DNA of 64,000 nt from the NCBI GenBank assembly GCA_041661345.1, contig JBAZUO010000005.1, positions 3,977 through 67,976 on the forward strand, in the 5' to 3' direction. This DNA comes from Candidatus Omnitrophota bacterium. Lineage in GTDB: Bacteria; Omnitrophota; Gorgyraeia; 2-01-FULL-45-10. Positions within the stretch are counted from its first letter, which is position 1; every line of letters begins with the position of its first letter. Positions 9,144 through 35,082 of this stretch are shown in pieces. Under the pieces are notes generated by a model that had not been told where the DNA came from, did not search any database, and was given only the letters and a program-made list of their open reading frames with translations. Position numbers and translations under genes: made by a program.

Positions 9144-9185
9144 AAAAAAACAGGGTTGGTTTGTCTTGATTACACACCAACCCTG
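9144..9185 (-). terminator. Rho-independent terminator after the DUF2934 gene
   Basis: Minus strand: CAGGGTTGGT-(loop)-ACCAACCCTG followed by TTTTTTT. Confidence 0.7.
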
Positions 9186-9220
9186 CCTAATATCGTGCAC
9201 TACTTTGTTACTTTAATAAA

Positions 9221-9436: not shown

Positions 9437-9467
9437 CTCGTGTTTTCATTATACCGCTCCGCGTAAA

Positions 9468-11129: not shown

Positions 11130-11133
11130 AATC

Positions 11134-12720: not shown

Positions 12721-12725
12721 ATGCG

Positions 12726-13556: not shown

Positions 13557-13587
13557 ATAAGTTGCCTCCTAATAAAACAGCAATGCC

Positions 13588-14106: not shown

Positions 14107-14185
14107 GTTACTCCTCCTTCGGTTATCAACCACTATTTTATAGCACGACAATGGAGGAAAAGTCAAGAATTATGACTGATCTTTT

Positions 14186-19132: not shown

Positions 19133-19441
19133 TTATTGTTTGTTTCTGTTGATACCGGGCAATATCTTCTTTACAAATATGAAGACAACGAGCGTTATTA
19201 TCGCAAAGTCCAGCAATGAGCCTAAAAAATTACCTATTTTAAGATGTAACCTGCCGAATACGATTTCCGCCTCGCGCCAGTTTCCGCTCGGTATTATTAT
19301 TCCAAGGAACGGCATTACCAGGTCGGAAACTATAGCCGAGACCATCTTAGTAACGGCATTACCGACGACTATACCTACAGCGATGCCTATCGCGTTGTAT
19401 TCCTCGACAAACTCCACAAGCTCTTCCCTGATCTTCTTCAT
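19133..19441 (-). CDS. mscL: Large-conductance mechanosensitive channel
   Basis: 102 aa. FVEEYNAIGIAVGIVVGNAVTKMVSAIVSDLVMPFLG is collinear with the E. coli MscL TM1 region, and a second TM helix is present. Confidence 0.78.
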   Translation of the reverse strand: MKKIREELVEFVEEYNAIGIAVGIVVGNAVTKMVSAIVSDLVMPFLGIIIPSGNWREAEIVFGRLHLKIGNFLGSLLDFAIITLVVFIFVKKILPGINRNKQ

Positions 19442-20211
19442 AAAAGCTTCGCGGCCTCTTTGACCGAGGCGCCATCGTGGACTATTCTACGGATCGCCTT
19501 GATCACACCCACGGCATTATTGGACTGCCAGATGTTGCGCCCCATATCCACGCCTCTAGCGCCTTCATTCACCGCCGCATACGCAAGCCTTAACGCATCC
19601 ATCTCCGTCTTAAGTTTCGGCCCGCCAGCTACTACGAGCGGGACCGGGCAGGATTTCACCACCCTTTCAAAATCTTCACAATAGTAAGTCTTCACCATCT
19701 GGGCCCCCAACTCAGCGGCAATCCTGCAGCATAGTCCCAGGTACCGCGCATCGCGCTTCTGGAGCTCTTTGCCGACGGCCGTTACCGCAAGAACCGGCAT
19801 TCCGTATCTCTGGGCTTCGCTGACGAGATTACCTAGCGCGATCAGCGTCTGATGTTCATGCTCTGTCCCGACGTAGATCGAAAAGGCAGCCGCCGAGGCA
19901 TTAAGACGGATCGCCTCTTCCACTGAAGTCTGAACGGCTTCATTCGAGAGCGCGGGACCGACTATGCTATTACCGCCCGATACTCGCAGGATCATAGGAA
20001 GATCCAGCCCGGCATCAACGCAATTTCTTAAGACACCGCGGGTAAGCATCAGGGCATCGGTGTATGGTAAAAGCGGAGCGATCGTCTTTGCCGGCTCTTC
20101 GAGTTTTGAGAGCGGCCCCAAAAAATATCCATGATCGATCGCAAGCCATACGACCCTTTCATCTCCGGGTTTTATCAGACGCGACATCCTGTTCTTCATG
20201 CCCCAGTCCAT
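19438..20211 (-). CDS. Class I aldolase, DhnA/FbaB (archaeal-type fructose-bisphosphate aldolase / DeoC-LacD superfamily)
   Basis: 257 aa. LAIDHGYFLGP, GAQMVKTYY (Schiff-base Lys context) and VVAGGPK. Adjacent to pckG. Confidence 0.65.
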   Translation of the reverse strand: MDWGMKNRMSRLIKPGDERVVWLAIDHGYFLGPLSKLEEPAKTIAPLLPYTDALMLTRGVLRNCVDAGLDLPMILRVSGGNSIVGPALSNEAVQTSVEEAIRLNASAAAFSIYVGTEHEHQTLIALGNLVSEAQRYGMPVLAVTAVGKELQKRDARYLGLCCRIAAELGAQMVKTYYCEDFERVVKSCPVPLVVAGGPKLKTEMDALRLAYAAVNEGARGVDMGRNIWQSNNAVGVIKAIRRIVHDGASVKEAAKLL

Positions 20212-20214
20212 TGT

Positions 20215-21987
20215 TCACCTCACAAGTTTTTTCTTCATCATATCCAATTCGTCCCGCATTTCCTGCGGCAAGCGGTTTCCGAATTTCTTGAAGAATTCTT
20301 CTATATCAGCGCCTTCGCGCAACCATCCGTCCTTATCGATAGCGAATAATTTTTTAAGATTATCCTTGGAGATATCCAGGCCGGACATATCCAGGTCTTC
20401 TATCTTCGGAACAAGCCCTATGGGTGTCTCGTGAGCGCCGATCCTGCCATGAACCCTGTCTATCACCCATTTGAGAACGCGAATATTATGGCCAAACCCC
20501 GGCCATAAATATTTACCGCCTTCGTCTTTCCTGAACCAGTTTATAGAAAACACCCTCGGTTTATAAACAAGCTTCTTCTCTATGTCGAGCCAATGTTTGA
20601 AATAATCCGCCATATTGTAACCGCAGAAAGGCAGCATCGCCATTGGATCGCGCCTCACGACTCCTTCTTTGTGGCTTGCCGCCGCTGTCGTTTCGGACCC
20701 CATCCGCGCGCCCAGAAATACATTGTTGGCCCAGCTCTTACCTTCAACTATTAGAGGCAAGAGGCGCATGCGCCTTGATCCGAAGAGGATCGCGGATATC
20801 GGAACGCCCTGCGGATTTTCAAACAAGGGGGAAAGTGTCGGGCACTGGTATGCCGACACTGTAAATCTCGAGTTAGGATGCGCGGCTTTAGTGCCGGAAG
20901 AGGGATCCCATTTGTTGCCATTCCAGTCTATTACATTTTTAGGCATTACGCCGTCCGCACCCTCCCACCACGGCTCGTTCCTGTCGGAGTCTATAGCGGT
21001 ATTCGTGAAAAGCGTCGGATAAAAGGTGCCCTTCTTAAGGGTCTTCATCATATTGGGGTTGGTCTTGTTCGAAGTGCCCGGCGCTACGCCGAAAAACCCC
21101 GTCTCCGGATTTATCGCCCACAGCCTGCCGTCTTCGCCAACGTTCATCCATGCTATATCATCGCCGACAGTCCAAATCTTGTAGCCGGGCAGGACCGACT
21201 CCATCATCGCGAGGTTCGTCTTGCCGCACGCGCTCGGAAGCGCCGCCGCAATATATGTGGTATCGCCGCTCGGGTCCTGGGCGCCGAGTATAACCATGTG
21301 CTCGGCAAGCCATCCTTCCTTCAGGCCCAGGTACGACGCTATCCGGAGCGAAAAGCATTTTTTCCCCAGAAGAGCGTTGCCGCCATAACCCGATCCTATG
21401 CTCCACACAAAATGCTCGTCCGGAAAGTGCATTATAAATCGCTTGTTTGAATCGAAATCCCCCACCGAGTGCAGGCCCTTCACAAAATCTTTACTATTAC
21501 CTATCTTATCTATGACCTTTTTGGTCATGCGTGTCATTATGCGCATACTTATCGCCACATAGACGGAGTCCGTGAGCTGTATACACGCCTTGGCGTAGGG
21601 AGAATCGGGGTGGCCCATCATGTAAGGAAGCACATACATCGTCCTGCCTTTCATGCAGCCTTCGGAGAGTTTGCGCATCTTATCCTTGGCCTTGTCCGGC
21701 GCCATCCAATTATTTGTAGGCCCGGCCGTCTCTTTGTCGGGATGGCAGATATATGTAAGATGCTCTGTTCTTGCGACATCAGTAGGATGGCTACGGTGAT
21801 AATAGGCTCTGGGAAAGGTCTTCTGATTAAGCTCTGAAAAGACCGGATGGCCGGATATCTTCTCTTCTTTAATACCGATCTCGACAAGCCTACGAGCTTC
21901 TTCTTCGGAACCGTCACACCAATATACCGTGTCCGGCTTTGTAAGTTTTGCCTGTTCCTCTACCCATCTTTCAAGTGGTGTGCTCAT
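20215..21987 (-). CDS. pckG: Phosphoenolpyruvate carboxykinase (GTP)
   Basis: 590 aa. GSGYGGNALLGKKCFSLRIAS, ALPSACGKTNLAMM (kinase-1a P-loop) and WFRKDEGGKYLWPGFGHN are typical of GTP-PEPCK. Confidence 0.92.
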   Translation of the reverse strand: MSTPLERWVEEQAKLTKPDTVYWCDGSEEEARRLVEIGIKEEKISGHPVFSELNQKTFPRAYYHRSHPTDVARTEHLTYICHPDKETAGPTNNWMAPDKAKDKMRKLSEGCMKGRTMYVLPYMMGHPDSPYAKACIQLTDSVYVAISMRIMTRMTKKVIDKIGNSKDFVKGLHSVGDFDSNKRFIMHFPDEHFVWSIGSGYGGNALLGKKCFSLRIASYLGLKEGWLAEHMVILGAQDPSGDTTYIAAALPSACGKTNLAMMESVLPGYKIWTVGDDIAWMNVGEDGRLWAINPETGFFGVAPGTSNKTNPNMMKTLKKGTFYPTLFTNTAIDSDRNEPWWEGADGVMPKNVIDWNGNKWDPSSGTKAAHPNSRFTVSAYQCPTLSPLFENPQGVPISAILFGSRRMRLLPLIVEGKSWANNVFLGARMGSETTAAASHKEGVVRRDPMAMLPFCGYNMADYFKHWLDIEKKLVYKPRVFSINWFRKDEGGKYLWPGFGHNIRVLKWVIDRVHGRIGAHETPIGLVPKIEDLDMSGLDISKDNLKKLFAIDKDGWLREGADIEEFFKKFGNRLPQEMRDELDMMKKKLVR

Positions 21988-21988
21988 T

Positions 21989-23026
21989 TTATTCCTGTGG
22001 TTTGATTATAACTTTGATCGAATCTTTGGCTTCGGCAACAAGCTTAAATCCCTGAAGCGCCTCGCCGAGGCCGAATCGATGCGTTATCATATCATGAATA
22101 TTAATTTTATGCGAGGCAATTTTTTCCAACGCCCGACGATGGTCATCGGGGCTTGCCGCATAGGAGCTTACAACCGTAACTTCATTTCTCCAGAATATAT
22201 CGTTTATTGGAACCGGAAGCAGGGCATCCTTGGGCGCTGAAGCAAATATCAGGACAGTGCCTCCCCGCTCAACGGACCTTAAGGCCTGTTCGAACGCGGA
22301 TGCCGCGCCGGCGCAAATGATAACATAATCGGCCAGGTATCCGTCATTAAGGCTCCTTAATTTCTCCGGGGTATAATCCTTCGCGTTGATCGCGTGATCG
22401 GCTCCGAATTTCTTCGCCGCCGCAAGCCTGAAATCGGATATGTCTGTAGTTATTACCCGTTTTGCGCCTTGCAGCCTGGCTAGCTGAATATGAAGCAGCC
22501 CCGCTATTCCGCTTCCAACCACGAGAACCGTTTTAGCTTTCGGATTTGTGAATCCAGCCAAACGCTGGCCTCTCAGGACGCATGCCAACGGCTCTATAAA
22601 CGTCGCTTCCTCAAACGATACATTATTCGGTAATTTATAAACGCCGCCTTTTTCAATATTGATCTTCGGAACACGTACGAATTCGGAAAAACCGCCCGGA
22701 TCGAAGTTCGTCTTTCTCAGGGTATCACAAACCGATTCATGGCCGGCTTTGCAGAAACGGCATTCTCCGCATGGCACGTGATGCGAGGCTGAAACCCTGT
22801 CTCCTACTTTGTAACCTTTAAGGCCTTTCCCGATCTCGGTTACAACACCCGCGATCTCATGCCCCAATACAAGCGGTACCCTATTAATGCGATACCACTC
22901 GAGACAATCCGTACCGCAGATACCGCTGGCCTCGATGCGCACAAGAATCTCGCCGGGACCGATATCTGGTTTCGGCTTCTCTTCAAGTCGGACATCAGAA
23001 TTGCTATAGTACATCGCGATACGCAT
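21989..23026 (-). CDS. Zinc-dependent medium-chain alcohol/polyol dehydrogenase
   Basis: 345 aa. GHEIAGVV, structural-Zn CGECRFCKAGHESVC and GSGIAGL Rossmann motif. Confidence 0.85.
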   Translation of the reverse strand: MRIAMYYSNSDVRLEEKPKPDIGPGEILVRIEASGICGTDCLEWYRINRVPLVLGHEIAGVVTEIGKGLKGYKVGDRVSASHHVPCGECRFCKAGHESVCDTLRKTNFDPGGFSEFVRVPKINIEKGGVYKLPNNVSFEEATFIEPLACVLRGQRLAGFTNPKAKTVLVVGSGIAGLLHIQLARLQGAKRVITTDISDFRLAAAKKFGADHAINAKDYTPEKLRSLNDGYLADYVIICAGAASAFEQALRSVERGGTVLIFASAPKDALLPVPINDIFWRNEVTVVSSYAASPDDHRRALEKIASHKINIHDMITHRFGLGEALQGFKLVAEAKDSIKVIIKPQE

Positions 23027-23047: not shown

Positions 23048-23527
23048 TTACAATATCCTCTGCAGTAAAGACGTAATAAAATCTCCGTTTTTATTTTTAC
23101 TGTCGGGAATATTTATCTCATCTATCTTTGCAACGCCTTTTGATTCGAGGGTTTTTCTTATACTCTTAAAACAATTACCAACCCCAAGGCCGCTGCCTGA
23201 AGTCAAAACTACAATAATCCTTTTCCCGTTTAAGCCCGAGGCTTTATCGAGAAACGTATTCATTGCCGGCGTCGGCACGAACGCCCAGACTGGGGAAGCG
23301 ATTAAAACCAGATCATATGAACTCACATCATATTTGACACCGGCTTCAAGTTCCGGCTTCTCTCTGCGGCGCGCCGCGGCACATTGTCCGATAAAGGTCA
23401 TCACCCCCTTTACGGGTTTAAGCCTCTGAATATCAGCCTGTCCTTTTACCCCAAGGATCTTCGCGAATATCCTGGCTATCTTGTCAGTATTGCCGCTGAA
23501 AGAATAATAAGTCACAAGGCTCTTCAT
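23048..23527 (-). CDS. Flavodoxin-family protein
   Basis: 159 aa. LVTYYSFSGNTDKIA FMN-phosphate loop and IASPVWAF. 4-nt overlap with the BNR gene. Confidence 0.75.
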   Translation of the reverse strand: MKSLVTYYSFSGNTDKIARIFAKILGVKGQADIQRLKPVKGVMTFIGQCAAARRREKPELEAGVKYDVSSYDLVLIASPVWAFVPTPAMNTFLDKASGLNGKRIIVVLTSGSGLGVGNCFKSIRKTLESKGVAKIDEINIPDSKNKNGDFITSLLQRIL

Positions 23528-24597
23528 AGAGGCCTCCCCTCAATCCATTTTTCATCGGTTACAAAATGAGCTATGCTCTGCCTGCAGTCGTAAGAGTAGA
23601 CCACATGAATAAGCCCGACGCCATCCTGTATGATAGACGGATAGACATTGATACTGCCGGATTTAAACTCAATCATCCTCACATATGGCCATGTCCTGCC
23701 TTCATCATGCGATAAGGCAATGCTTATACCTTCGCGGCTTAATTTGGAATCATTGAATACAAGGGCAACATTACCACTCTTAAGTTTTATCATTACGAGA
23801 GAGCAGCCCGGATTTTTGACATTGGAAACCCACTGCTTTTTCCAACTGCGGCCGAAATTATAACTTATCGCCTGCCAGGATAAACGCGGCCACATACCGG
23901 TTCGCGTAAGCGCAAATAAACTCAAATCTGAACGCTGTATTATAGTGGGCTGGATACCGAATAAAAAGAGCATGTATATAGGTTTACTCCAGGTTAAACC
24001 GCCATCTCTGGAGATGCTTACCGCGGACGAGGTGCTAAGATCGGTATATAACGGCAGAATGGTCTGTCCGTCCTTAAGTGTTATTGGATTCGCCCTGACT
24101 AAAAAACCGGAAAATGCTTTAAGGTCATGGATCTCCCCCCACGTATGCCCGAAATCCATGGACACCCTCGCGTACACCTTGTTATCAACAATTTTCCACC
24201 ATCTCGTTTCCGCCACCCAGAATAACCACAGCTTTTTATCCGGGCCCAGAAATAAGACCGGATTTTTGTCGGAATGGCCCGGGGTTTCATTAATAATTAA
24301 TGGTTTCGTCCATTTATCGGCACCAACCGGTTTTCTTGCAGCCCATATAACTGTTTTAGGACTTCCACGCTCAGGCGGAGCATACCATGCGACGAATAAT
24401 TCTCCTCCGGGTAGTTCCACAATGGCTGGTGCATGAGACGAAATAACCTGCCCTGGTTCAAAAACTAGTTCCTTATGGGGCAGCTTGTGATAGGCATTAA
24501 CCGGTTCCGCGGCCACATTGATCGGAATGGTGAAAAAAATTACGCTTGCCAGGAAAAGCCCGGCTAGTGTAGAAATAACCCTTCGTTTAATTGTCAT
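23524..24597 (-). CDS. Secreted BNR/Asp-box repeat beta-propeller (sialidase-like fold)
   Basis: Start set to ATG at 24597 (GAGGAA SD; the ORF-track start at 24633 adds 12 aa before the signal peptide). Asp-boxes SMDFGHTWG, SRDGGLTWS and SHDEGRTWP. Confidence 0.72.
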   Translation of the reverse strand: MTIKRRVISTLAGLFLASVIFFTIPINVAAEPVNAYHKLPHKELVFEPGQVISSHAPAIVELPGGELFVAWYAPPERGSPKTVIWAARKPVGADKWTKPLIINETPGHSDKNPVLFLGPDKKLWLFWVAETRWWKIVDNKVYARVSMDFGHTWGEIHDLKAFSGFLVRANPITLKDGQTILPLYTDLSTSSAVSISRDGGLTWSKPIYMLFLFGIQPTIIQRSDLSLFALTRTGMWPRLSWQAISYNFGRSWKKQWVSNVKNPGCSLVMIKLKSGNVALVFNDSKLSREGISIALSHDEGRTWPYVRMIEFKSGSINVYPSIIQDGVGLIHVVYSYDCRQSIAHFVTDEKWIEGRPL

Positions 24598-24719
24598 CAG
24601 TTCCTCGTCTTCATCACACTGGAATAGACACAAGAGTCACTGATTATAGAACTTTTATACGGGAGTTTCAAGCATTATTCCAAGTTACGCCCTACGCAAC
24701 CCTTTGATTGAAAGCATTT

Positions 24720-25484
24720 TCATTTGCTTATCTCAGATTTCATAAATCGCCGTTTTAAACCCGATATCAGTTCGGCAATAGCCCCCACCGGGCAAAAATA
24801 CCTGCACCAAAATCTGGGTATGAAAAAGGCTGCGATCAATATCAACGCGGCAATAAAAACGGTTACCCCCATCCATTTATAACCCACAGATTCAAAATAT
24901 GCCAGTGCCTGAGAACCGGACAAAGTCAGGGAATACATCCAGGCAGTTAGAAGCAGCACCATATATACTGAAAAATAATCCCGAAGAGGCAGTTTAAAAT
25001 TCTGCTTTGAAATCTGAGTCTGACAGTTCTGAAATGCCCCAAAAGGGCAAAGCGATGTACACCAAAATCTTCCGGATAAATTCAAGATAAGGAATGAGCT
25101 GAAAACGAAAGCCCTCGACATCCCCCATGGGCACCTATCCGGACAGACACGACAAAATACGTAAGGCACTTTAAAATAACATCTGAAAACCGGCAAAAGT
25201 AGTATCGGGATAAAGATCATGCCGTATATTAATTTTAAGATCCATCGGATCGACATCTTACGAGTAAGCAATTGAAATATCAAAAAACAGAAAGCCAGGA
25301 TAATAGCTATCTTGACCAGAAGCTGAAAATTATTGCTCCACAAGAAACGAAGACGATATATCGCATCTGCGTGCGCTGCGGCCAGCGAAAGGCTTGACCC
25401 AAATAAAAAAAACACAAAAAATAAAATAATCGTTTTTTTATCTTCCCGCAACATAATAGAACAACATCCTTTTTTTTGGCGCAC
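24720..25484 (-). CDS. Polytopic membrane 4Fe-4S-binding protein (Fer4_5 / NapH-NosR-like)
   Basis: 254 aa. Three C..CP.G-type motifs after TM helices (FCRVCPDRCPWG, WCTSLCPFGAF, WCRYFCPVGAI). The start may be the internal ATG at 25454. Confidence 0.65.
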   Translation of the reverse strand: MRQKKGCCSIMLREDKKTIILFFVFFLFGSSLSLAAAHADAIYRLRFLWSNNFQLLVKIAIILAFCFLIFQLLTRKMSIRWILKLIYGMIFIPILLLPVFRCYFKVPYVFCRVCPDRCPWGMSRAFVFSSFLILNLSGRFWCTSLCPFGAFQNCQTQISKQNFKLPLRDYFSVYMVLLLTAWMYSLTLSGSQALAYFESVGYKWMGVTVFIAALILIAAFFIPRFWCRYFCPVGAIAELISGLKRRFMKSEISK

Positions 25485-25579
25485 CCTACCGGTAAATTAT
25501 ACGCCTTGGCCTAAACCTATCAACTATTAGCTGCCCCCTATTGAATGTTGCAAATACCGCCAGCAAAGCCTTCACAAGC

Positions 25580-26380
25580 TCAACTCTTTCGAAAAATAAT
25601 AGTAAACCACTGATGATTGACATACTCCGCATAAAGCGGGCCATACCCCCTATCCTTAGCCTTACTAATTTTCAAAAATATGCACTCGAGCTTTAATCCG
25701 CTCGAAATATCGATCGCTTTATCTGCCCATCTCGAATAATATAAAATACCTTTTTCTGGAAATAAATTAAAGCGATGCAACCCACTATAACCCGTTCTCT
25801 TCCCTTCATTAACAAGTCCCTCAATAAATATTATTCCTCCTTTTTTAGTGACATTATACATATTTTTAAAAGCCCTTCCGGGAGACTGCATATGGTCCAA
25901 GGCATTACTTGAATAAACCATATCGAAAGTATTCGCGCTAAACAGGTCTAATAATTTTTCGCCTTTTCCTCTGATGGGCTTGACCGGATAAAAATAGCCT
26001 TTATCTGTCATTATTTTTTCATACTCTTTTGCAAGAGGATCAACAGCAACTATATCACATAAATTTTCAACCGCCGCTAATGCCAAAAGTGACACCGGCC
26101 CGGAACCGACTTCGAGTAATTTTATCCGGCCATTATTTGTTTTTTTAAGATCAACAATGTAGCCCATCAGCTCTTTTGGGAAAATCTTCTTCCATGATTC
26201 CGAGTTAGACATCAATTCCCAGCTAGATGGTATGAATTCTTTCCACCAATTTATTTCAGCTCTGAAATCCGGTTTGATTAACAGGATGCCTTTTGTAAAT
26301 CTTACACGTTGTTCACTTATTTTAACCTTACCGAATGTCAGCATCTTTATACAATTAGCTATAATTTTCGATTTATTCAT
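25580..26380 (-). CDS. Class I SAM-dependent methyltransferase
   Basis: 266 aa. Motif I LLEVGSGPV, followed by DIVAVDP and FDMVYSSNALDH. Confidence 0.78.
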   Translation of the reverse strand: MNKSKIIANCIKMLTFGKVKISEQRVRFTKGILLIKPDFRAEINWWKEFIPSSWELMSNSESWKKIFPKELMGYIVDLKKTNNGRIKLLEVGSGPVSLLALAAVENLCDIVAVDPLAKEYEKIMTDKGYFYPVKPIRGKGEKLLDLFSANTFDMVYSSNALDHMQSPGRAFKNMYNVTKKGGIIFIEGLVNEGKRTGYSGLHRFNLFPEKGILYYSRWADKAIDISSGLKLECIFLKISKAKDRGYGPLYAEYVNHQWFTIIFRKS

Positions 26381-26533
26381 ATTTTTAATCCTTTGAGTAT
26401 TTTGGCATATCTGGCGTCGTCAAATGAAATTATACCCCTTAAGCGTATAAAGGTGAAGGGAAAATGCGGCTTGGAAGTATTGGTTGAAAAATTTGAGTTG
26501 TATTTTTTATGGCTTAATGATAGCTTTGTAGCT

Positions 26534-27940
26534 ATGAATATATTCCTGGTATATCCGCTGGTTTTTCAAAAAATAGACAGGGCTTCCCATGTCCACCACC
26601 CTTTTCCTGCCCTGGGATTAGTTTATATCGCTACGGTCCTTAGAAATAAGGGTCATAGAGTGGAAATCGCGGACAGGAACGAAATCCTGATAAAGAACAA
26701 CTATGATCTCGCCATTACGGACAAGGTGGTTCTCGACAGGATAAAGGTGTCCCGATCGCAGATCGTGGGTTTCAGCGCAACAACTCCCCTCATGTATGAC
26801 GTGATACATTTTTCTAAATTGCTCAAGAAAGAACTGCCCAATATTGTAACGATTGCCGGAGGTCCGCACCCCACCGCCGAACCGAAAGAAACATTGATGA
26901 GCTGTCCCGACATAGACCTTGTAGCCGAAGGAGAAGGCGAAGCTACTATGCTGGAGTTAATTGGCCGCTTCCCTGATTCCAACGTCCCGGGAATATGGAA
27001 AAGAGCAGGAAATAATTTATATACTGCCGGTAAGAGGGAGCTATCACAGGATCTGGATGAGATACCTATACCTGATAGAAACTTATTAAATATGGAATTC
27101 TATGTCGCGCCAACGGAAGAACGGCATCTTTTCGGTAGGCATACCACCATATTTACGTCGCGCGGCTGTTTCGGAAGGTGCCGCTTCTGCGCCGGCCCCT
27201 TGATGTTCCCCGGGAAGATAAGATACCATTCTCCTGACTACGTTATAGAGGAGATCGAAAAGATAATCAACCTTTACAAAATTAATTATATCTATTTCGC
27301 GGACGATATGTTTCTGACCCGGATCGACAGGGCCCAGGCCATTTGCGACAAGATCCGCGAGAGGGGCCTTCATAAAAAAATGAAATGGATATGCCAGATC
27401 TCGGCCGTTTCGGCAAGCCTCCCGGTACTGAAGATGATGAAAGAAGCCGGATGTGTATTAATAGAATGCGGTTTCGAATCCGGTTCGCAGGAAGAGCTGG
27501 ACAGGATGAATAAGAGGGCTTCCGTTTCGAAATATTACGAACTGGCCGCGATCGCTCATAAAGTAGGTTTAAATTTCAGGGCGAACATGATAAAAGGATA
27601 CGTGGACCAGACAGAAAAGGATTTCATGTTATCCGGCGAGTTCATTAAAAAGATAAAGCCATATTTCACTAATTTTAATAACTTCTGGCCGCTCCCGGGA
27701 ACAGAGGCATACAAGGAACTGTTAAAAAGAGGATATGAAATAAGCTGGCAGGACTGCACCGATTTCCGGCAGAATTTCACCAAAATGTCAAACGAGAGAT
27801 TTACGGAATTGACCCATGAAATACAAAAGCGGATCGTCAGCCCTTTGAATAAGAGTAATTTCAAGAGATACCATTTGCTACATCACCCTGTATATTTGTT
27901 AAAGCACATCTATCAGAAAAATTTTGGCCATTCACACTGA
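26534..27940 (+). CDS. B12-binding-domain (class B) radical SAM enzyme
   Basis: Start set to ATG at 26534 (MNIFLVYP...); the track start at 26309 would overlap the divergent methyltransferase. N-terminal Rossmann-like cobalamin domain (GLVYIATVLRNKGHRVEIAD, IAGGPHPT), then CFGRCRFC (CxxxCxxC). One of only two plus-strand genes. Confidence 0.82.
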   Translation: MNIFLVYPLVFQKIDRASHVHHPFPALGLVYIATVLRNKGHRVEIADRNEILIKNNYDLAITDKVVLDRIKVSRSQIVGFSATTPLMYDVIHFSKLLKKELPNIVTIAGGPHPTAEPKETLMSCPDIDLVAEGEGEATMLELIGRFPDSNVPGIWKRAGNNLYTAGKRELSQDLDEIPIPDRNLLNMEFYVAPTEERHLFGRHTTIFTSRGCFGRCRFCAGPLMFPGKIRYHSPDYVIEEIEKIINLYKINYIYFADDMFLTRIDRAQAICDKIRERGLHKKMKWICQISAVSASLPVLKMMKEAGCVLIECGFESGSQEELDRMNKRASVSKYYELAAIAHKVGLNFRANMIKGYVDQTEKDFMLSGEFIKKIKPYFTNFNNFWPLPGTEAYKELLKRGYEISWQDCTDFRQNFTKMSNERFTELTHEIQKRIVSPLNKSNFKRYHLLHHPVYLLKHIYQKNFGHSH

Positions 27941-28456
27941 CGGAGACGAAAGCTCGGCTACTGCCCGATTAAAACATTTATTAATTTGCGCAACTATGTT
28001 GCCCCTTCGCATATTTTGCCTTTCCTTGTTAAGATATTGCTCAAATTCTCGCGCGATGATTGTATTAGGGATAGAATCGATGACCTCACATAACTTTTTC
28101 TTGTCCAATGACTTTATGTCTCTGATTGCCTGCCATTTCGTCATCGTATCACTAACTTTATAAGTCGTTCTTAAATAAAAAGGCAGATACTTTATAATTC
28201 TATAAGCTTCCGCGTATTCCCGCTTGAATTTCTCTTCACTCATCTTATCTAATTTATCGATATTTATTCTCTTCAATTTATCAACATCCGCCCTCGCCAC
28301 AAATGCCTTTGCCAAGGCCTTAAAAGCCGGGCCGATTCGATTCCCGACAGTACTATTCTCTTTGGCAAAGATATGCCCGGCGGGAAATAAAACTGCAACA
28401 ACAAACAATACTGCCAGACCTACCGACGCGGCCCTTGCCGTTTTCCGTGTGCTCAT
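27932..28456 (-). CDS. Secreted alpha-helical protein, unknown function
   Basis: Start set to ATG at 28456 (GGAGG SD 6 nt upstream). Signal peptide, K/E-rich helical body, no recognisable domain. 9-nt convergent overlap with the plus-strand radical SAM gene. Confidence 0.5.
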   Translation of the reverse strand: MSTRKTARAASVGLAVLFVVAVLFPAGHIFAKENSTVGNRIGPAFKALAKAFVARADVDKLKRINIDKLDKMSEEKFKREYAEAYRIIKYLPFYLRTTYKVSDTMTKWQAIRDIKSLDKKKLCEVIDSIPNTIIAREFEQYLNKERQNMRRGNIVAQINKCFNRAVAELSSPSV

Positions 28457-28604
28457 GTCATACCTCCACATACAATAAATTATACCCCTCCGATTTACAA
28501 TGAGATTCTAGGGACGTTTTTAAAATCAAGATTGGATCTGTCCCCTGCAAGGGGCATATCTGAAACTAATTATGAAAGCGTCCCTGGACATCCATTGGAT
28601 TTGA

Positions 28605-30044
28605 TTAAGCGTTGTTTACAAATATGCGTTTCAAGGAGTCGCCAAGCCGCTTTTTTTTCATTTCTCTGATTATTACACTTTTTAACAAACTCGGACCTGA
28701 TACTAAAAACATGATGACCTCATTAAAAGCGAGGAACTTCACTACGACGAATTTATTTAATATCTTTAAAATCTGTATAGGCGTATAGAATGAAAATTTA
28801 ATTTGTCTGCCTATTTTTTTTAAACTAGCATGGCTATAAATATCCGAATATAGCTCACCTCTGGCGGTAACATGATAGCCGGGCGTATTTTCCGCAACTT
28901 TTCTAAGCGGAGAAAATTTCTCAATGCGAAGCTTCTGGAACGTAATGGAGTCGAGATTTATTTCCTTTGCAAACTTTGCTATATAGAGCATCTCTTTCTC
29001 AGTCTCTCCTATGTTGCCGTAAATAAAGTAGCCGTGATAGTAGATGGGGTATTTTTTCAACACGGCAAAACATCTTCTTATTGCAGATGAGTCAAAACCC
29101 TTGTTAAGCTCAGTCAATATATGATCGTGCGGGGATTCTATGCCTATAAAGAGCATCTTGAAACCCGCCTTAACCATTTTGTCCAGAAGCCTGGGGTGTT
29201 TGCCTATCTCGATGCGAGCTTGTGCCAGGAAGCGTTTTTTTATTCCACGCGCTATTATAAGATCGCAAATCTCTTCCGACCTTTTTATGTCTGTAAAAAA
29301 GTTGTCATCATTAAACAGTATGGTTTTGGCGCGGACCTCCCCTAACTCCCTTACAACAGATTCAACACTACGCGCCGCGTAATCTCTTTTTTGACCTAGT
29401 GGATTCAGATTGAATGTACAGAATTTGCAGTTGAAAGGACATCCTCTGGCACTTAAGACCGAATCAAACGTAAAGTCTGGCAAGTCGATACCGTTTATCC
29501 TCATGTAATATTTATTCCTTCTCAAACTCCGATCCGGCGAACCTATGATATCTACATCGGGTAATGGCCTGTTCGCATTATGAACTATCCCCTGGCTACC
29601 TCTATAAGAGATACCTAAAATATTTTCACGCGGGCTCCCCCTTAATATCTCTTTTATCGTTTCTTCACCCTCACCCCTGACAATAATATCTATCCCTGGA
29701 CAAGCCTTAAAGAGATCATCAACGTCTACCGTAGCTTTATATCCGCCCACAACCAAAGGTATATTATCCGGCAATACGTTCAACAGGTTACATATCTCTT
29801 CATATTGACGATCCCATCCGACACTAACACACACAATATCGATGTTCTTGCGTATAAAATCGATCAATTTACCGGAGTCACACAGCTCTGTTTCGTATCG
29901 CAGATCGAGAAGGGTTATTTTATCCACAAGGCCTTCGGCGCTGGAGGCCACATACTCAAGACCTGTTGGCGGAAATAGCCCCATAATGCTCGTTGCCGTG
30001 TTTTCTATATAAGGGTTTAGAAATAATGCATGTTTATATTTCAT
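28605..30044 (-). CDS. B12-binding-domain (class B) radical SAM enzyme, second copy
   Basis: 479 aa. N-terminal B12-like domain (PPTGLEYVASS..., VVGGYKAT), then SARGCPFNCKFC (CxxxCxxC). Only distantly similar to the 26534 copy. Confidence 0.82.
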   Translation of the reverse strand: MKYKHALFLNPYIENTATSIMGLFPPTGLEYVASSAEGLVDKITLLDLRYETELCDSGKLIDFIRKNIDIVCVSVGWDRQYEEICNLLNVLPDNIPLVVGGYKATVDVDDLFKACPGIDIIVRGEGEETIKEILRGSPRENILGISYRGSQGIVHNANRPLPDVDIIGSPDRSLRRNKYYMRINGIDLPDFTFDSVLSARGCPFNCKFCTFNLNPLGQKRDYAARSVESVVRELGEVRAKTILFNDDNFFTDIKRSEEICDLIIARGIKKRFLAQARIEIGKHPRLLDKMVKAGFKMLFIGIESPHDHILTELNKGFDSSAIRRCFAVLKKYPIYYHGYFIYGNIGETEKEMLYIAKFAKEINLDSITFQKLRIEKFSPLRKVAENTPGYHVTARGELYSDIYSHASLKKIGRQIKFSFYTPIQILKILNKFVVVKFLAFNEVIMFLVSGPSLLKSVIIREMKKKRLGDSLKRIFVNNA

Positions 30045-30096
30045 TCTTATTTCCTATCCGATACCTGTGATTCATAACCATTAACCCGATACTAGT

Positions 30097-30558
30097 CTAT
30101 CGTGACGATTCATGGCCCATACTTTCACGTTTATCTTTATTAGCCTTTCTATAACTTATTTCGTCTTGAGCTAAAATTTTTGCTATCTCTTTATAAATAT
30201 TATTGGCGCTATAATAACCGATCACATCCAAAGCTTTAATAGCGCCTGGCCGATCTACGCTACAGGTAATCTTTGTTCCCGATGCTTCTTGACTTACATT
30301 TATCCGTGCATAAAATGGGGTGCGTCCTGTTAAAAGATTAACACAGGAACCTTGTACAAAAAAGTTGTCCGTGTCTTTCTTTTCTATTTTATATCCTAAG
30401 TTTTTTAATGCACAGCATGAAGCATCAAGCGCAACTTTTATTGGCGCGTTAGTATATATTACGTTAGCAGAGGCGGCATCTTTTGCCGGTCCGGTAGTTG
30501 CACAGCCGGTGATTAGAAATACCCCTAACAATAAAATTGAAAACAGGCTTCTTTTCAT
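30097..30558 (-). CDS. Lipoprotein, unknown function
   Basis: 153 aa. Lipobox LITGC. No recognisable domain. Confidence 0.55.
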   Translation of the reverse strand: MKRSLFSILLLGVFLITGCATTGPAKDAASANVIYTNAPIKVALDASCCALKNLGYKIEKKDTDNFFVQGSCVNLLTGRTPFYARINVSQEASGTKITCSVDRPGAIKALDVIGYYSANNIYKEIAKILAQDEISYRKANKDKRESMGHESSR

Positions 30559-30662
30559 AGCTAACCCCTCTATTTATTTAGTATATCTTCAGGCCCTTTT
30601 GGACACTTTAATATTGCTTGAGTTTACACTAAAAAACAAAACTTAGCAAATCGTTATTGAGG

Positions 30663-30707
30663 AAATAAAAACAAAACCCTACGCAAGTATTTTACCCACA
30701 TAGGGTT
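30663..30707 (-). terminator. Hairpin plus U-run downstream of tRNA-like stub c1
   Basis: Minus strand: AACCCTA-(19 nt)-TAGGGTT followed by TTGTTTTTATTT. Confidence 0.5.
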
Positions 30708-30716
30708 ATGTTTTAA

Positions 30717-30750
30717 TGGCTCCCTGCAGCGAACGAGATCTCAAACTGAC
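30717..30750 (-). other. Degenerate tRNA 3'-end-like stub c1 (…GTTCGCTGCAGGGAGCCA), immediately 3' of the exonuclease stop codon
   Basis: The plus strand TGGCTCCCT... shares its first 9 nt, and 21 of the next 31, with stub c2 at 31448. It resembles the tRNA-Asn 3' end at 32243 (TGGCTCCCCC...CGAAC). Confidence 0.45.
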
Positions 30751-31371
30751 TTATGAGTGTGTTTGGGAGTGCATCTTTCCGTGTAATATACCCTGTAGCG
30801 CGAAATATAACTCTCTGCATACCCATGCATCGGTAGCCGCATATATTATCTGTTCACGCGTAAGAGCCTGTGTATCCCATCGGGAGCACTTCGTCTGTTT
30901 GGATATTCTGAAACCAAACAAGAGAGCGGCCAGACCGCGTACCCCCGCATTTTTTATCCCTGCCTTGTGCGCCATCCCAGCCAGCTCAACGAACCCTGAT
31001 GACCCGAGAGGAAATAGATCGCTCAGTTTTTTTATATCATCATCCACTTTAACGCCGGCTTTCAGCACTTTCTTATCATTCAAAATGCCGGCAATAGGAT
31101 CATAGGATTTTATATGCCTTAGCTGGAATATGTAGACCCGATCAAAGGCTGCAAGCTGGATAACGGAAGGTGGATAGGATTCGCCCTTCTTAAAAGCCGG
31201 CCTCGTCTCTGTATCAAACCCGAGGACTTTTTCACTCGCGATGGACTGCACAGCAGAGTGCATCTTTGAGTCGGAATCTATCACGTGGATAGAGCCGGTA
31301 TACGTTTTACACGGCAGATCATTTATTTCATTTTTTGATATGGCATGCCTGTGCGATGAGTGAGTATGCAT
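30751..31371 (-). CDS. DnaQ-like 3'-5' exonuclease (RNase D / WRN-exo family)
   Basis: GFDTETRP (ExoI DxE), YIFQL and a C-terminal YAATDAW (ExoIII YxxxD). ATG at 31371 is preferred over the TTG at 31377. TATAAT (31385->31380) lies 8 nt upstream, so the mRNA may be leaderless. Confidence 0.75.
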   Translation of the reverse strand: MHTHSSHRHAISKNEINDLPCKTYTGSIHVIDSDSKMHSAVQSIASEKVLGFDTETRPAFKKGESYPPSVIQLAAFDRVYIFQLRHIKSYDPIAGILNDKKVLKAGVKVDDDIKKLSDLFPLGSSGFVELAGMAHKAGIKNAGVRGLAALLFGFRISKQTKCSRWDTQALTREQIIYAATDAWVCRELYFALQGILHGKMHSQTHS

Positions 31372-31408
31372 ATGCAAGGATTATACGCCTGCGGATACCA
31401 GAAAGAAA

Positions 31409-31443
31409 GAAAAATGCCCATCACTAAACAATGGGCATTTTTC
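31409..31443 (-). terminator. Hairpin plus U-run downstream of stub c2
   Basis: AAAATGCCCA-(11 nt)-TGGGCATTTT, with T-rich tracts on both strands. Confidence 0.6.
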
Positions 31444-31447
31444 AAAT

Positions 31448-31487
31448 TGGCTCCCTATGGTGGACGAACTCTCGAACTAGATTATGA
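31448..31487 (-). other. Degenerate tRNA 3'-end-like stub c2 (…GAGAGTTCGTCCACCATAGGGAGCCA)
   Basis: Retains GTTCG and GGGAGCCA of the tRNA-Asn T-loop/acceptor end but cannot fold into a T-arm. Followed, like the genuine tRNA, by its own terminator. Confidence 0.45.
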
Positions 31488-31568
31488 ACGAGGATTATAT
31501 GGTATGTAAGGGGCTTTACGGACTGCTAAATCTCGATTCAACGAAAAAGCAACGATTCGACATATGAT

Positions 31569-32027
31569 TTATTTGAAGAATTTTTTGTTATTCAGTTTCT
31601 TTATATCTGAAATATCGTGTTCCCTTCCTGCTTTTTTCTTTGAGTAAATTAATTCTTTAACACCCAGGATATTTATGGAAATACCACCATATTTTGATTT
31701 TTTACGGCTTTTCCATGCATTCTCGAATTTTATTCCTGATGCGTCCATCAGTATGTCAATTCGGACTGGAGCAACCCCTATTTGGTAAATCATTTTTTTA
31801 TTAGCAAAGTCTTCTTCGGATACACCTTTAAGCGGCGCTCCGAAATCTACTAGCGCTTTATAAAGGCGTTTTGCATTTACCATATCATAACTTGCCCATA
31901 TATCCAAGTCCTTGGTATAGCGCGGCTCGGTATAGAAAGTTACCGCATATGCGCCGATAATCAGATACTTAACCTTATGCCTGTTTAATGTTTTGAACAG
32001 ATCTTTGTAATCTGAGCTTATATCCAC
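31569..32027 (-). CDS. Small nucleotidyltransferase-fold protein (putative toxin-antitoxin-type module component)
   Basis: 152 aa, GTG start. L..H.VKYLIIGAYAV..Y..PR.TKDLDIW is the pattern of the widespread ~150-aa NTase-like family that occurs with a small upstream partner. Confidence 0.5.
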   Translation of the reverse strand: MDISSDYKDLFKTLNRHKVKYLIIGAYAVTFYTEPRYTKDLDIWASYDMVNAKRLYKALVDFGAPLKGVSEEDFANKKMIYQIGVAPVRIDILMDASGIKFENAWKSRKKSKYGGISINILGVKELIYSKKKAGREHDISDIKKLNNKKFFK

Positions 32028-32172
32028 GCTTGTTCCTGATTTTATAAAATTCCTCTACCATCTGCCATAGCGCTGAAAACTTAGTGGTTGTACTGGCGTT
32101 CCTCCAAAACTCGATATTAAAGTCTTCGGCTTTCTTGAATGATGTTGTTTTATTTTCCCATATCTTTTTCAT
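31975..32172 (-). CDS. Small partner protein of the NTase-fold gene
   Basis: Start set to ATG at 32172 (MKKIWENK...). Extended -10 TGGTATAAT (32187->32179) ends 6 nt before the ATG with no SD, so this is a leaderless candidate. Overlaps the NTase gene by 53 nt. Confidence 0.45.
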   Translation of the reverse strand: MKKIWENKTTSFKKAEDFNIEFWRNASTTTKFSALWQMVEEFYKIRNKRGYKLRLQRSVQNIKQA

Positions 32173-32194
32173 GACTACATTATACCATATTCTC

Positions 32195-32233
32195 AACAAA
32201 AAGAGAACGCCCACCTGTTAAAAAGATGGGCGT
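32195..32233 (-). terminator. Terminator of tRNA-Asn
   Basis: Minus strand: AACGCCCA-(13 nt)-TGGGCGTT, then CTCTTTTTG. Starts 10 nt after the CCA end. Confidence 0.6.
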
Positions 32234-32242
32234 TTTCCTGTA

Positions 32243-32524
32243 GTGGCTCCCCCGCGAGGACTCGAACCTCGGACACTCTGGTTACGATCTGACTCCGATT
32301 ACTCGGAGAGTCGGACTATACCATTACCATGGCCTTTTTAAGGCTTTAGGCAGCGAGTCTCTAGTCTCTGCACCTTCCTCGAATCACTATGATCCGGGGC
32401 TTGGCTCAGGATTGACCCAATCGCTTGGGCTTTCCCTGAATTTACCCGCTTTTCACCGCGGCGTTTCCGTCGCAGGCTGCTAACCTCTAACAGCCAGATG
32501 CTCTACCGACTGAGCTACAGGGGA
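32243..32524 (-). tRNA. tRNA-Asn(GUU), split gene: exon 1 32524->32490 (35 nt), intron 32489->32284, exon 2 32283->32243 (41 nt, CCA encoded)
   Basis: The joined exons give UCCCCUG UA GCUC AGUCGGUA GAGC A UCUGG CUGUUAA CCAGA GUGUC CGAGG UUCGAGU CCUCG CGGGGGA G CCA. All four stems pair (one U.G), and the layout is almost that of E. coli tRNA-Asn. Confidence 0.9.
32284..32489 (-). ncRNA. Group I intron, IC3-like, 206 nt, no ORF
   Basis: P1: exon GGCUGU pairs with intron GCAGCC (U.G at the splice site). The terminal nucleotide is G. P3 AGCGGGU/ACUCGCU, P4 UCAGG/CCUGA, P5 GCCCAA[GCGA]UUGGGU, P8 GCCU[UAAAA]AGGC, P9 CUCCGA[GUAA]UCGGAG. The core GAAGGUGCAGAGACUAGA closely matches the Azoarcus tRNA-Ile intron as I recall it. 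Confidence 0.85.
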
Positions 32525-34492: not shown

Positions 34493-34960
34493 TTATTTTT
34501 CAGCTGAAACGCTTACCTTAAAACCCGTTCCCCTCACACCCACAACAGACGTCGGTGTGCGAACTTGAAACTGCGACTCGTTCTTCAGCTGATTGGCTTT
34601 TACGAGTATGTCGCCCATGGCAAGATCGAGAGCTATTTTCTTGTTCGCGACGTCATTCGACGCGACGTAGTCCGTGATCTTCATGTTGCTGTTAGAATCA
34701 ACCCTAACGATAGCATCATCCTGGCCGTTCCCTTTGAACTTAAGATCTACGTAGGAACCTTTCGCGGTCCTTATCGTATCACCCGTGCCAAGACTCATAC
34801 CGAACGATATCGGGTCCCAGCTGCTAGATCCCTGGGACATAACTTCCGCTTTGCCCTGGACATCCGCCACAACGACATCTTTCGTAGCCGCTAAAGACAT
34901 CCCATAACACAAGAGTGAAGCTACTAAAACCAATGACATAACTATAAATGTTCTGCGCAT
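34493..34960 (-). CDS. Secreted FecR-domain protein (usual partner of CHASE2 sensors)
   Basis: 155 aa. Signal peptide, then GDTIRTAKGSYVDLKF...VRTPTSVVGVRGTGF, typical of the FecR/PF04773 beta-sandwich. Confidence 0.7.
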   Translation of the reverse strand: MRRTFIVMSLVLVASLLCYGMSLAATKDVVVADVQGKAEVMSQGSSSWDPISFGMSLGTGDTIRTAKGSYVDLKFKGNGQDDAIVRVDSNSNMKITDYVASNDVANKKIALDLAMGDILVKANQLKNESQFQVRTPTSVVGVRGTGFKVSVSAEK

Positions 34961-35043
34961 TTTACGCCTCCTTTTTCCTCACCATATTAAGTATACCCAA
35001 TATATTCCCCTTTGTCAAGGTAGCCTGCCGATGGGGTTTTATA

Positions 35044-35072
35044 TTGCTTTGGCGGGGCCTAAACAATATAAT
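35044..35072 (+). promoter_or_regulatory. Sigma-70-type promoter TTGCTT-N17-TATAAT for the plus-strand gene
   Basis: TTGCTT at 35044-35049, a 17-nt spacer, TATAAT at 35067-35072. The ATG follows 10 nt later with no SD, so the leader is very short or absent. Confidence 0.45.
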
Positions 35073-35082
35073 ATACTTTTAT

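Follow-up and report, generated by a model that had tools for sequence, protein, structure and literature searches.

The class B radical S-adenosylmethionine (SAM) enzymes with solved structures (TsrM, TokK, CysS, OxsB, MgmA/QCMT and AprD4) join a B12-binding Rossmann domain to a radical SAM core; of these, AprD4 acts on an aminoglycoside sugar and carries the B12-binding domain but does not use B12. Class B methyltransferases occur in pathways of ribosomally synthesized and post-translationally modified peptides (RiPPs), the BzaC methyltransferase and the B12 radical SAM enzyme BzaD form a known pair, and flavodoxin is a known physiological reductant of radical SAM enzymes. Here we compare with such systems the interval 23048-30558 of a 64,000-nucleotide stretch of a Candidatus Omnitrophota genome (contig JBAZUO010000005.1; the whole stretch is called the window), in which eight consecutive genes include a flavodoxin, a membrane protein with a Fer4_5 iron-sulfur domain, a methyltransferase and two radical SAM enzymes, called rSAM1 and rSAM2. 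An earlier interpretation of this DNA, the sequence-only reading, had taken the eight genes for one orphan pathway. Our genome comparison leads us to regard the interval, with moderate confidence, as a mosaic of three unrelated things and not as one pathway. The BNR propeller and flavodoxin genes open a conserved Omnitrophota gene string, the backbone of the region, next to which a low-GC stretch of cargo (24680-32244) lies directly downstream of a tRNA-Asn gene, with rSAM2 and a four-gene module containing rSAM1 as two independent radical SAM cargo items. The eight genes are the following:

23048-23527, minus strand: flavodoxin (Flavodoxin_4, Pfam 1.3e-13), overlapping the BNR gene by 4 nt and lying 21 nt upstream of an alcohol dehydrogenase gene
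23524-24633 (likely start 24597), minus strand: BNR propeller (BNR_2, Pfam 1.5e-42)
24720-25484, minus strand: Fer4_5 membrane protein (Pfam Fer4_5 5.5e-15)
25580-26380, minus strand: class I SAM methyltransferase (Pfam Methyltransf_11 3.3e-12), divergent from rSAM1
26309/26534-27940 (probable start 26534), plus strand: rSAM1, with B12-binding and Radical_SAM domains (Pfam) and the motif CFGRCRFC
27932-28471, minus strand: 179-aa secreted protein (174 aa if the start is 28456), with no Pfam or NCBIfam match
28605-30044, minus strand: rSAM2, with B12-binding and Radical_SAM domains (Pfam) and the motif CPFNCKFC
30097-30558, minus strand: 153-aa lipoprotein with the lipobox LITGC and no Pfam family

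All eight genes, together with the domains that the sequence-only reading had assigned to them, are upheld by Pfam, and five of the eight proteins match exactly accessions within the consecutive NCBI coding sequences MFA6142042-49. Where the best matches of the window proteins bear an organism name, it is almost always Candidatus Omnitrophota. The correct domain calls and the adjacency of the genes speak for a single pathway of methylation or cross-linking of an envelope lipid or glycan, in which flavodoxin and the Fer4_5 protein would feed both radical SAM enzymes while the exported proteins would handle the product; so do a radical SAM and methyltransferase pair found upstream of an orthologous flavodoxin in another locus (L089) and the occurrence of rSAM1 relatives in glycan clusters. 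However, among the 97 loci compared (80 of them centred on rSAM2 and 9 on homologues of rSAM1) the set is not co-conserved in any genome beyond the same strain: the other accessory genes co-occur in none of the 80 rSAM2 loci and in none of the nine rSAM1-homologue loci, and only BNR and flavodoxin recur together, in the company of genes for a Zn-dependent alcohol dehydrogenase (Zn-ADH) and phosphoenolpyruvate carboxykinase (PEPCK). Moreover, flavodoxin and BNR accompany the ADH, PEPCK and aldolase genes also where no radical SAM gene is nearby (L088 and L091), rSAM2 orthologues never have the neighbours seen here, separate promoter-like and terminator-like sites divide the block, and its backbone and variable parts differ in composition. 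Absence of co-conservation in other genomes was what the sequence-only reading had itself named as grounds for refutation, and we consider a single pathway very unlikely. The apparent cluster dissolves on comparison with related genomes, and gene order in Omnitrophota is so fluid that the adjacency of redox and radical SAM genes does not establish a pathway.

A conserved string of central metabolism begins with the BNR propeller and flavodoxin genes and runs in the window from 24633 down to 15905 in the order BNR-(flavodoxin)-Zn-ADH-PEPCK-DeoC aldolase-peptidoglycan (PG)-binding protein-AsnC regulator-aminotransferase, and then DUF8173. Three of its genes, all outside the eight-gene block and assigned by Pfam, recur below:

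21989-23026, minus strand: Zn-ADH
20215-21987, minus strand: GTP-dependent PEPCK
19438-20211, minus strand: DeoC-family aldolase

These three genes are syntenic in four other loci (L088, L089, L091 and L097) at 75-91% amino acid identity, and in all four BNR lies upstream of (flavodoxin-)ADH-PEPCK. The string is most completely reproduced in L088 (2119-10508), where DUF2204, a 77-aa open reading frame (ORF), BNR, flavodoxin and the genes onward to DUF8173 follow the exact order of window 24633-15905 at 61-89% identity. In L088, L089 and L091 a flavodoxin orthologue (60-74% identity) immediately precedes ADH-PEPCK; the gene is missing from L097 as a 480-bp indel. Two of the loci show the backbone interrupted: L089 by a 5-kb insert (9093-14262) between BNR and flavodoxin, which encodes a radical SAM protein of 592 aa whose B12 domain is weak, together with a 315-aa methyltransferase and a number of small hypothetical proteins, and L091 by a 5.6-kb insert with AMP-binding and hydrolase genes. 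Since flavodoxin keeps the company of ADH, PEPCK and the aldolase, genes beyond the block, with or without a radical SAM gene nearby, it is not to be taken for a reductant dedicated to radical SAM enzymes; the sequence-only reading had called it their usual reductant.

The BNR protein has relatives in about 80 clusters at 46-69% identity, of which the named ones all belong to Omnitrophota. Its NCBI name is exo-alpha-sialidase (putative); what our analysis confirms is the BNR_2 domain (146 bits) and one Asp-box. The hallmarks of exo-alpha-sialidases are an Arg triad, a Tyr/Glu nucleophile pair, an acid/base Asp and a six-bladed propeller. A secreted BNR propeller and a flavodoxin stand at the head of a gluconeogenic gene string. 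Further along this string, the 293 bp between the aldolase and the gene for the PG-binding protein (window 19141-19433) have no counterpart in L097 and contain promoter-like and hairpin elements, as well as a doubtful 112-aa ORF on the plus strand.

The other six genes of the block lie in a segment of different character, which continues beyond the lipoprotein gene up to a tRNA gene:

24680-32244 (7.6 kb): variable segment of low G+C, separating the BNR gene from the 3' end of tRNA-Asn
30751-31377, minus strand: 3'-5' exonuclease, RNase D-like (DNA_pol_A_exo1, Pfam 5.6e-21), a member of the variable segment
31569-32214, minus strand: gene pair of a DUF2204 nucleotidyltransferase (31569-32027; Pfam) and an overlapping 79-aa ORF (31975-32214)
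32244-32524, minus strand: split tRNA-Asn(GUU), with 5' exon 32524-32490, intron 32489-32285 and 3' exon 32284-32244

The closest relative found, L097, shares 88% identity with the window in ADH, 87% in PEPCK, 91% in the aldolase and 89% in a GGDEF protein, and its gene order is GGDEF, an intron-less tRNA-Asn, TylF methyltransferase, a 72-aa ORF, PilZ, BNR, ADH, PEPCK and aldolase. In blastn comparisons it aligns with window 33290-32488 and 24680-19434 (within the latter, 23027-19434 corresponds to L097 3679-7268 at 83%), and nothing is aligned in between, where L097 has 1.7 kb of unrelated genes, namely those of the TylF methyltransferase, the 72-aa ORF and the PilZ protein. Because L097 aligns only on both sides, we define 24680-32244 as a variable segment downstream of tRNA-Asn; its cargo comprises the genes for the Fer4_5 protein, the methyltransferase, rSAM1, the 179-aa protein, rSAM2, the lipoprotein, the exonuclease and the nucleotidyltransferase pair. 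The breakpoints of the alignment, 32488 and 24680, coincide with tRNA-Asn and with the minimum of G+C content, the 7.5-kb window of lowest G+C in the 64 kb starting at 24701 (24701-32211, 40.7%). For comparison, the window has a mean of 45.7% G+C and its 7.5-kb windows 45.9 +/- 1.9%, while the interval 23048-30558 has 41.7%. The methyltransferase gene (36.6%) is the lowest of the eight, and window-wide only the nucleotidyltransferase gene at 31569-32027 is lower (35.9%); the lipoprotein gene has the lowest G+C at third codon positions in the window (GC3 0.29, z = -3.5). The shift in composition that the sequence-only reading had suspected is therefore real insofar as the G+C of the interval is depressed and the computed profile is not flat, but it spares BNR (45.9%) and flavodoxin (44.4%), which are ordinary, and the low-GC part starts past the BNR gene.

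The segment 24680-32244 is a swap-prone stretch that carries different cargo in related genomes. The DUF2204 nucleotidyltransferase and its 79-aa partner, directly downstream of tRNA-Asn, resemble a toxin-antitoxin pair, and the same position in L089 and L091 is occupied by toxin-antitoxin, Fic or transposase genes. The insert in L089 (9093-14262), with its radical SAM and methyltransferase cargo that is not homologous to that of the window, represents a second case at the same hot spot. Elements matching the consensus of terminators and promoters, and known from such matches only, subdivide the segment: terminator-like hairpins stand after three elements, namely the tRNA, the nucleotidyltransferase pair and the exonuclease, the sites 31443-31409 and 30707-30675 flanking the last of these, and promoter-like sites precede the Fer4_5 and BNR genes (11/12 matches each) and the methyltransferase gene (10/12).

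In its proximity to a tRNA gene, its atypical composition, its content that varies among relatives and its toxin-antitoxin-like pair, the segment resembles known tRNA-adjacent islands and plasticity zones, the first three features being those of an island. One could thus propose that 24.7-32.2 kb, including rSAM2, is a horizontally acquired island integrated at tRNA-Asn, since it lies directly downstream of that gene, has the lowest G+C of the window, is replaced in the closest relative L097 and holds a toxin-antitoxin-like pair at a position where L089 and L091 have toxin-antitoxin, Fic or transposase genes. Unlike such islands, the segment has neither an integrase or recombinase among its Pfam matches nor a direct repeat of att type, a second copy of the tRNA 3' end being found neither within 3 mismatches nor by any significant local alignment; the nucleotidyltransferase pair, moreover, is itself a conserved neighbour of BNR, its homologues (42-43% identity) lying directly upstream of BNR in L088 and L089. 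The segment also holds a core-like rSAM2, vertically inherited as it appears, whose orthologues throughout the phylum reach 89% identity, a level like that of the flanking core genes of L097 (87-91%); because of this match in identity, vertical descent of rSAM2 combined with local rearrangement fits better. A classical integrative island, for want of integrase and att repeat, is not demonstrated, and acquisition of the entire stretch in this manner seems to us unlikely. The sequence-only reading had also suggested a local inversion or insertion from the strand of rSAM1, which is indeed one of the only two convincing plus-strand genes among about 66 in the window (the other being 34948-35769). 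The atypical G+C and the breakpoint at 24680 mark an insertion or replacement, but the repeats flanking rSAM1 that would mark an inversion are short and at chance level only.

Within the mosaic, both radical SAM enzymes can be compared with the described members of their class. They are only about 25-27% identical to each other, and the three cluster cysteines of CxxxCxxC are invariant in the alignments of both. Their scores with the B12-binding domain PF02310 (66.7 bits for rSAM1 and 46.8 bits for rSAM2, the cut-off being 32.1) and the radical SAM domain PF04055 (68.9 and 59.3 bits, respectively) place them in class B, with predicted use of cobalamin. The curated families scoring best for both, at 89-139 bits, are HpnJ (TIGR03471), BchE (TIGR02026) and HpnR (TIGR04367), yet these scores lie 4-7 times under the cut-offs of 481-650 bits. 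For rSAM1 the values are 139.4 bits with BchE (cut-off 481), 139 with HpnJ (578), 90 with HpnR (650) and 77.6 with BzaD (450); for rSAM2 they are, against the same cut-offs, 121.8 with HpnJ, 108.8 with BchE, 89 with HpnR and 33.4 with BzaD. The comparison with hopanoid C-methylases drawn in the sequence-only reading thus finds the HpnJ and HpnR models among the best-scoring ones but with cut-offs far from reached, and neither the window nor the 80 rSAM2 loci have hopanoid or bacteriochlorophyll genes nearby. Neither protein reaches any NCBIfam cut-off, so that a placement in known subfamilies, for which a profile search had been suggested, is not obtained. The solved class B enzymes share with both proteins the B12-binding Rossmann domain and the radical SAM core, and the predicted structures of both show that domain and superpose on TsrM, TokK and AprD4, but identity with the solved enzymes is just 14-20% and the best E values are 1e-14 (rSAM1) and 9e-8 (rSAM2). 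The fold does not give the substrate or the type of reaction, be it methylation, dehydration or ring contraction. The two enzymes represent subfamilies, as yet uncharacterised, of a class that is itself well known, and the plasticity zone in which they lie is of a familiar kind.

rSAM2 is by far the more widespread of the two. A scan of one genome per GTDB species yielded 382 relatives, of which the best 80 (61-87% identity) were taken with 10-kb flanks; the best 120 protein clusters for rSAM2 are full-length and at least 67% identical, and full-length orthologues at 61-89% identity are present in at least 80 species-level genomes. When 15 window proteins were searched with tblastn in the 80 loci, no match even at E<0.1 was obtained for the flavodoxin, BNR, Fer4_5, methyltransferase, 179-aa, lipoprotein or exonuclease genes, and rSAM1, like the other six genes of the block, does not occur within 10 kb of an rSAM2 orthologue. 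One genome carries rSAM2 (L075) about 85 kb away from the backbone (L089) on a single 236-kb contig. Clustering of the flanking ORFs gave 59 families for the upstream neighbour in 75 loci and 64 families for the downstream neighbour in 77 loci; because neighbour families differ nearly everywhere, rSAM2 is best described as a highly conserved stand-alone gene. As part of the mosaic, and with the same moderate confidence as the whole, we regard it as vertically inherited and phylum-wide, without a fixed partner, and present at this place by chance.

By sequence, rSAM2 has weak matches in the PDB, the best being MgmA/QCMT (9CCB) at 9e-8. Its AlphaFold2 (AF2) model (mean predicted local distance difference test score, pLDDT, of 80) retrieves TsrM, MgmA, CysS, AprD4, OxsB and TokK with Foldseek at 14-18% identity, the template modeling (TM) score being 0.63 on TsrM and 0.70 on AprD4. 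Of possible functional relevance is a hydrophobic C-terminal helix (residues 432-450) that is conserved across the alignment; among 24 orthologues F438, F440 and F446 are at least 90% invariant and P451 is invariant. This helix suggests membrane association, and HpnJ and HpnR act on membrane lipids. The substrate of rSAM2 might then be membrane-associated and, we would weakly infer, most likely a lipid. Genes of lipid metabolism do occur within 10 kb of rSAM2, namely PlsC in 10 loci, FabF in 7, patatin in 6 and FabZ in 6, any of them being present in 20 of the 80. The literature found on Omnitrophota and radical SAM enzymes contains only surveys of the lipid enzymes Mss, Tes and Hbs, found in a minority of Omnitrophota, and none on the rSAM2 family. 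Judging from its distribution, rSAM2 probably marks a housekeeping modification; with 61-89% identity across a largely uncultured phylum and no characterised subfamily, it is a target for function discovery.

In contrast to rSAM2, rSAM1 is rare, with about 8 clusters at 60-71% identity and the remainder at no more than 46%. An identical copy is found in the same strain, on a 4.5-kb contig (L087) with the same gene order. A 697-aa protein, P0149, is a fusion that matches rSAM1 over its residues 19-441 (38% identity, E 4e-94) and, over its residues 509-645, residues 71-207 of the window methyltransferase (39% identity, E 1.7e-25). Because homologues of both are fused in P0149, rSAM1 and the divergently transcribed methyltransferase are likely to act together: rSAM1 would perform radical C-methylation or related radical chemistry, and the methyltransferase a conventional methyl transfer. 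The metagenome scan found no close relative of the latter, a single partial match of 35% being all that it returned.

As to the target of this pair, the four placed homologues of rSAM1 at 40-45% identity over the full length (L086, L094, L095 and L096) all lie inside surface-polysaccharide clusters. These clusters contain GT2/GT4 glycosyltransferases, DegT aminotransferases, Wzx-type flippases, PMT_2 and UDP-glucose dehydrogenase, along with CMP-sugar synthetases, NeuB and additional B12 radical SAM genes. Three of the four clusters also have class I methyltransferases: one adjoins the radical SAM gene in L096 and one is a single gene away from it in L086; L086, L095 and L096 have others within 5-7 kb, and L094 has none. 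AprD4 is the solved relative nearest to rSAM1 in sequence (E 1e-14) as well as in fold (TM 0.72-0.75); the AF2 model of rSAM1 has a pLDDT of 92 and reaches TM values up to 0.71 on TsrM. Because of the homologue clusters and of AprD4 as nearest solved relative, sugar or glycan tailoring is the activity that we infer for the rSAM1 pair, which by analogy may modify a sugar of an envelope glycan. The tailoring of an envelope lipid or glycan proposed in the sequence-only reading is thus retained in its glycan form, which fits the homologue context for rSAM1 and the methyltransferase, but does not extend to all eight genes. The pair provides a handle, supported by the fusion, on the many uncharacterised B12 radical SAM enzymes in surface-glycan clusters.

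A different substrate is suggested by the closer orthologues of rSAM1. Those at 70% identity (L081-L083) come last in a string of genes for cobalamin salvage and uptake, immediately behind CobU, CobT, CobS, a TonB-dependent receptor and an intervening methyltransferase (the full string, e.g. L082 451-8681, being ABC ATPase, CobC-like, CobU, CobT, CobS, TonB-dependent receptor, methyltransferase and radical SAM), whereas the one at 71% (L084) lies beside integrase fragments; none of the window neighbours of rSAM1 is present beside these 70-71% orthologues. Together with the weak BzaD match of rSAM1 (77.6 bits), this context would be compatible with an action of rSAM1 and the methyltransferase on the lower ligand of cobamides, a benzimidazole, in the manner of BzaC and BzaD. 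The BzaD cut-off of 450 is nevertheless far off and ten other families score higher for rSAM1, the methyltransferase of L081 is unlike that of the window, there are no cob genes in the window and no cobalamin riboswitch in the window or beside the rSAM1 orthologue in L082, and glycan clusters are the setting of all four homologues of 40-45% identity. Neighbouring genes of B12 salvage may also reflect a mere requirement for B12, and we hold an action on cobamides to be decidedly unlikely.

The context of rSAM1 homologues in glycan clusters speaks equally against a RiPP cluster driven by the B12 radical SAM enzymes, to which the matches of rSAM1 with ApyD (126 bits) and rSAM_ocin_1 (86 bits) might otherwise point; these matches are weak, the cut-offs of 750 and 282, respectively, being far off. 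None of the intergenic ORFs (20-45 aa) is conserved or shows features of a precursor, and Pfam detects no peptidase, RRE/PqqD-like protein or ABC exporter. The sequence-only reading had already judged a RiPP cluster unlikely from the lack of a precursor-like ORF, peptidase or exporter, and we concur in considering it extremely improbable.

Returning to the rSAM1 pair and its surroundings, we find that three genes near it share a short motif resembling an extended -10 promoter element, the 13-mer AGGSGTATAATTT. The three copies are as follows:

25494-25506, minus strand: promoter-like AGGCGTATAATTT, upstream of the Fer4_5 gene and part of the 11/12 sigma-70-like site
26427-26439, minus strand: promoter-like AGGGGTATAATTT, upstream of the methyltransferase gene, in the 153-nt divergent intergenic region
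28477-28489, minus strand: promoter-like AGGGGTATAATTT, upstream of the 179-aa gene

Three matches in 64 kb compare with 0.33 expected, and none of 100 shuffles reaches three. All three copies are on the coding strand, and their likeness stops at the core. In about 1.3 Mb of other loci, AGGSGTATAATTT was found in the same-strain contig and once in L047, where it lies upstream of an unrelated gene and follows a terminator. The motif suggests shared regulation or a shared origin of the Fer4_5, methyltransferase and 179-aa genes, and rSAM1 lies between two of the three genes that bear it. The Fer4_5 protein, the methyltransferase, rSAM1 and the 179-aa protein therewith probably form a rare accessory module, as judged from motif and fusion.

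The Fer4_5 protein has at least four hydrophobic helices and three CX3CP motifs, its N-terminal part being NapH-like. It shares the Fer4_5 domain, the transmembrane helices and the CX3CP motifs with the NapH, MauN and NosR proteins, but scores only 31.5 bits against the NapH/MauN cut-off of 213 and, unlike NapH and MauN, has no 2x[4Fe-4S] ferredoxin domain at its C terminus; the window shows no nap or nos genes near it. It is also rare, with 11 cluster representatives at E<1e-30 among 1.84 billion and a best identity of 52%. Around 49 of its 150 best matches are longer than 600 aa, most having 950-1035 aa, and the four long relatives tested (P0395, P0402, P0405 and P0414) combine a spermidine-synthase-like domain, which has the class I methyltransferase fold, with a C-terminal Fer4_5 membrane domain. 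We know of no characterised protein with this architecture. (The idea that the window methyltransferase and Fer4_5 protein are a split version of that fusion was rejected, since the methyltransferase has no similarity to the spermidine-synthase-like domain.) That the Fer4_5 protein donates electrons is a conjecture, and to our knowledge no dedicated membrane-bound reductant has been described for a class B radical SAM enzyme. The more specific proposal that 24720-28471 is a self-contained, co-regulated module, in which the NapH-like membrane iron-sulfur protein would feed electrons to the B12 radical SAM enzyme and this enzyme, with the methyltransferase, would produce a new envelope-glycan modification, appears to us quite unlikely as a whole.

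Several observations weigh against the interpretation given here. The module rests on one fused homologue (P0149) and one short motif (AGGSGTATAATTT), and among the 97 loci no second genome has the Fer4_5 protein, methyltransferase, rSAM1 and 179-aa protein together (L087 being the same strain). With regard to glycan tailoring, the 70% orthologues of rSAM1 in L081-L083 adjoin cobalamin-salvage genes and not glycan genes, the window methyltransferase is not orthologous to those beside rSAM1 homologues elsewhere, and in the window the surroundings of the module are free of glycosyltransferase and sugar-nucleotide genes out to about 17 kb; unlike the polysaccharide clusters, the module has no glycosyltransferase, flippase or sugar-nucleotide gene around it, but instead the Fer4_5 protein and an orphan secreted protein. 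With regard to rSAM2, the commonest genes within 10 kb are those of an ABC-F ATPase (23 loci) and a DEAD-box helicase (15 loci), followed by PlsC, and one or the other of the first two is found in 35 of the 80 loci, compared with 20 for the lipid genes; because translation-related neighbours are commoner, the lipid inference for rSAM2 is weak. Finally, the radical SAM and methyltransferase insert of L089 lies directly upstream of the same flavodoxin, so that cargo of this kind is found beside flavodoxin twice, and a functional link between flavodoxin, as a possible electron donor, and the inserted radical SAM genes is conceivable.

Among the proteins of the block, those of BNR and the 179-aa gene have a single N-terminal hydrophobic segment each, and the signals in both, as well as in the 153-aa lipoprotein, are consistent with export. 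The 179-aa protein may be helical, as proposed in the sequence-only reading, its sequence being compatible with this. Its gene converges with rSAM1, the 3' end of which overlaps it by 9 nt, and is called as 174 aa in L087; apart from this same-strain locus, none of the 97 loci contains a homologue. The lipoprotein forms a singleton cluster and has no homologue beside the rSAM2 orthologues in their 80 loci.

The block had further been described as ending at a stub of tRNA-Asn. In fact it stops at 30558, and a complete tRNA-Asn gene lies 1.7 kb further on, at 32244-32524, where the 'stub' turns out to be this gene with a group I intron inside it. Rfam RF00028 detects the intron at 32292-32499 on the minus strand (79.5 bits, E 1e-18). 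When joined, the two exons discerned in the sequence give a canonical 76-nt cloverleaf of tRNA-Asn(GUU), the 205-nt intron falling between anticodon positions 35 and 36. (A string at about 31450-31480 that resembles a tRNA 3' end was considered as a tRNA-Asn remnant and rejected, as it has no significant similarity to tRNA-Asn.) The same split gene with the same junctions and longer introns is present in L089 (about 4376-4728) and L091 (about 470-838), and an intron-less allele occupies the same position in L097 (776-851). The 35/36 site of group I introns in tRNA has been described in Patescibacteria and as rare in other phyla, Omnitrophota not being mentioned (Nakagawa et al. 2026, PMC13011429); the split tRNA-Asn carries it into Omnitrophota. 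ARAGORN calls tRNA-Asn GTT for the intron-less allele of L097 and no tRNA near the block in the window, and the intron explains how standard tools would report tRNA-Asn as missing.

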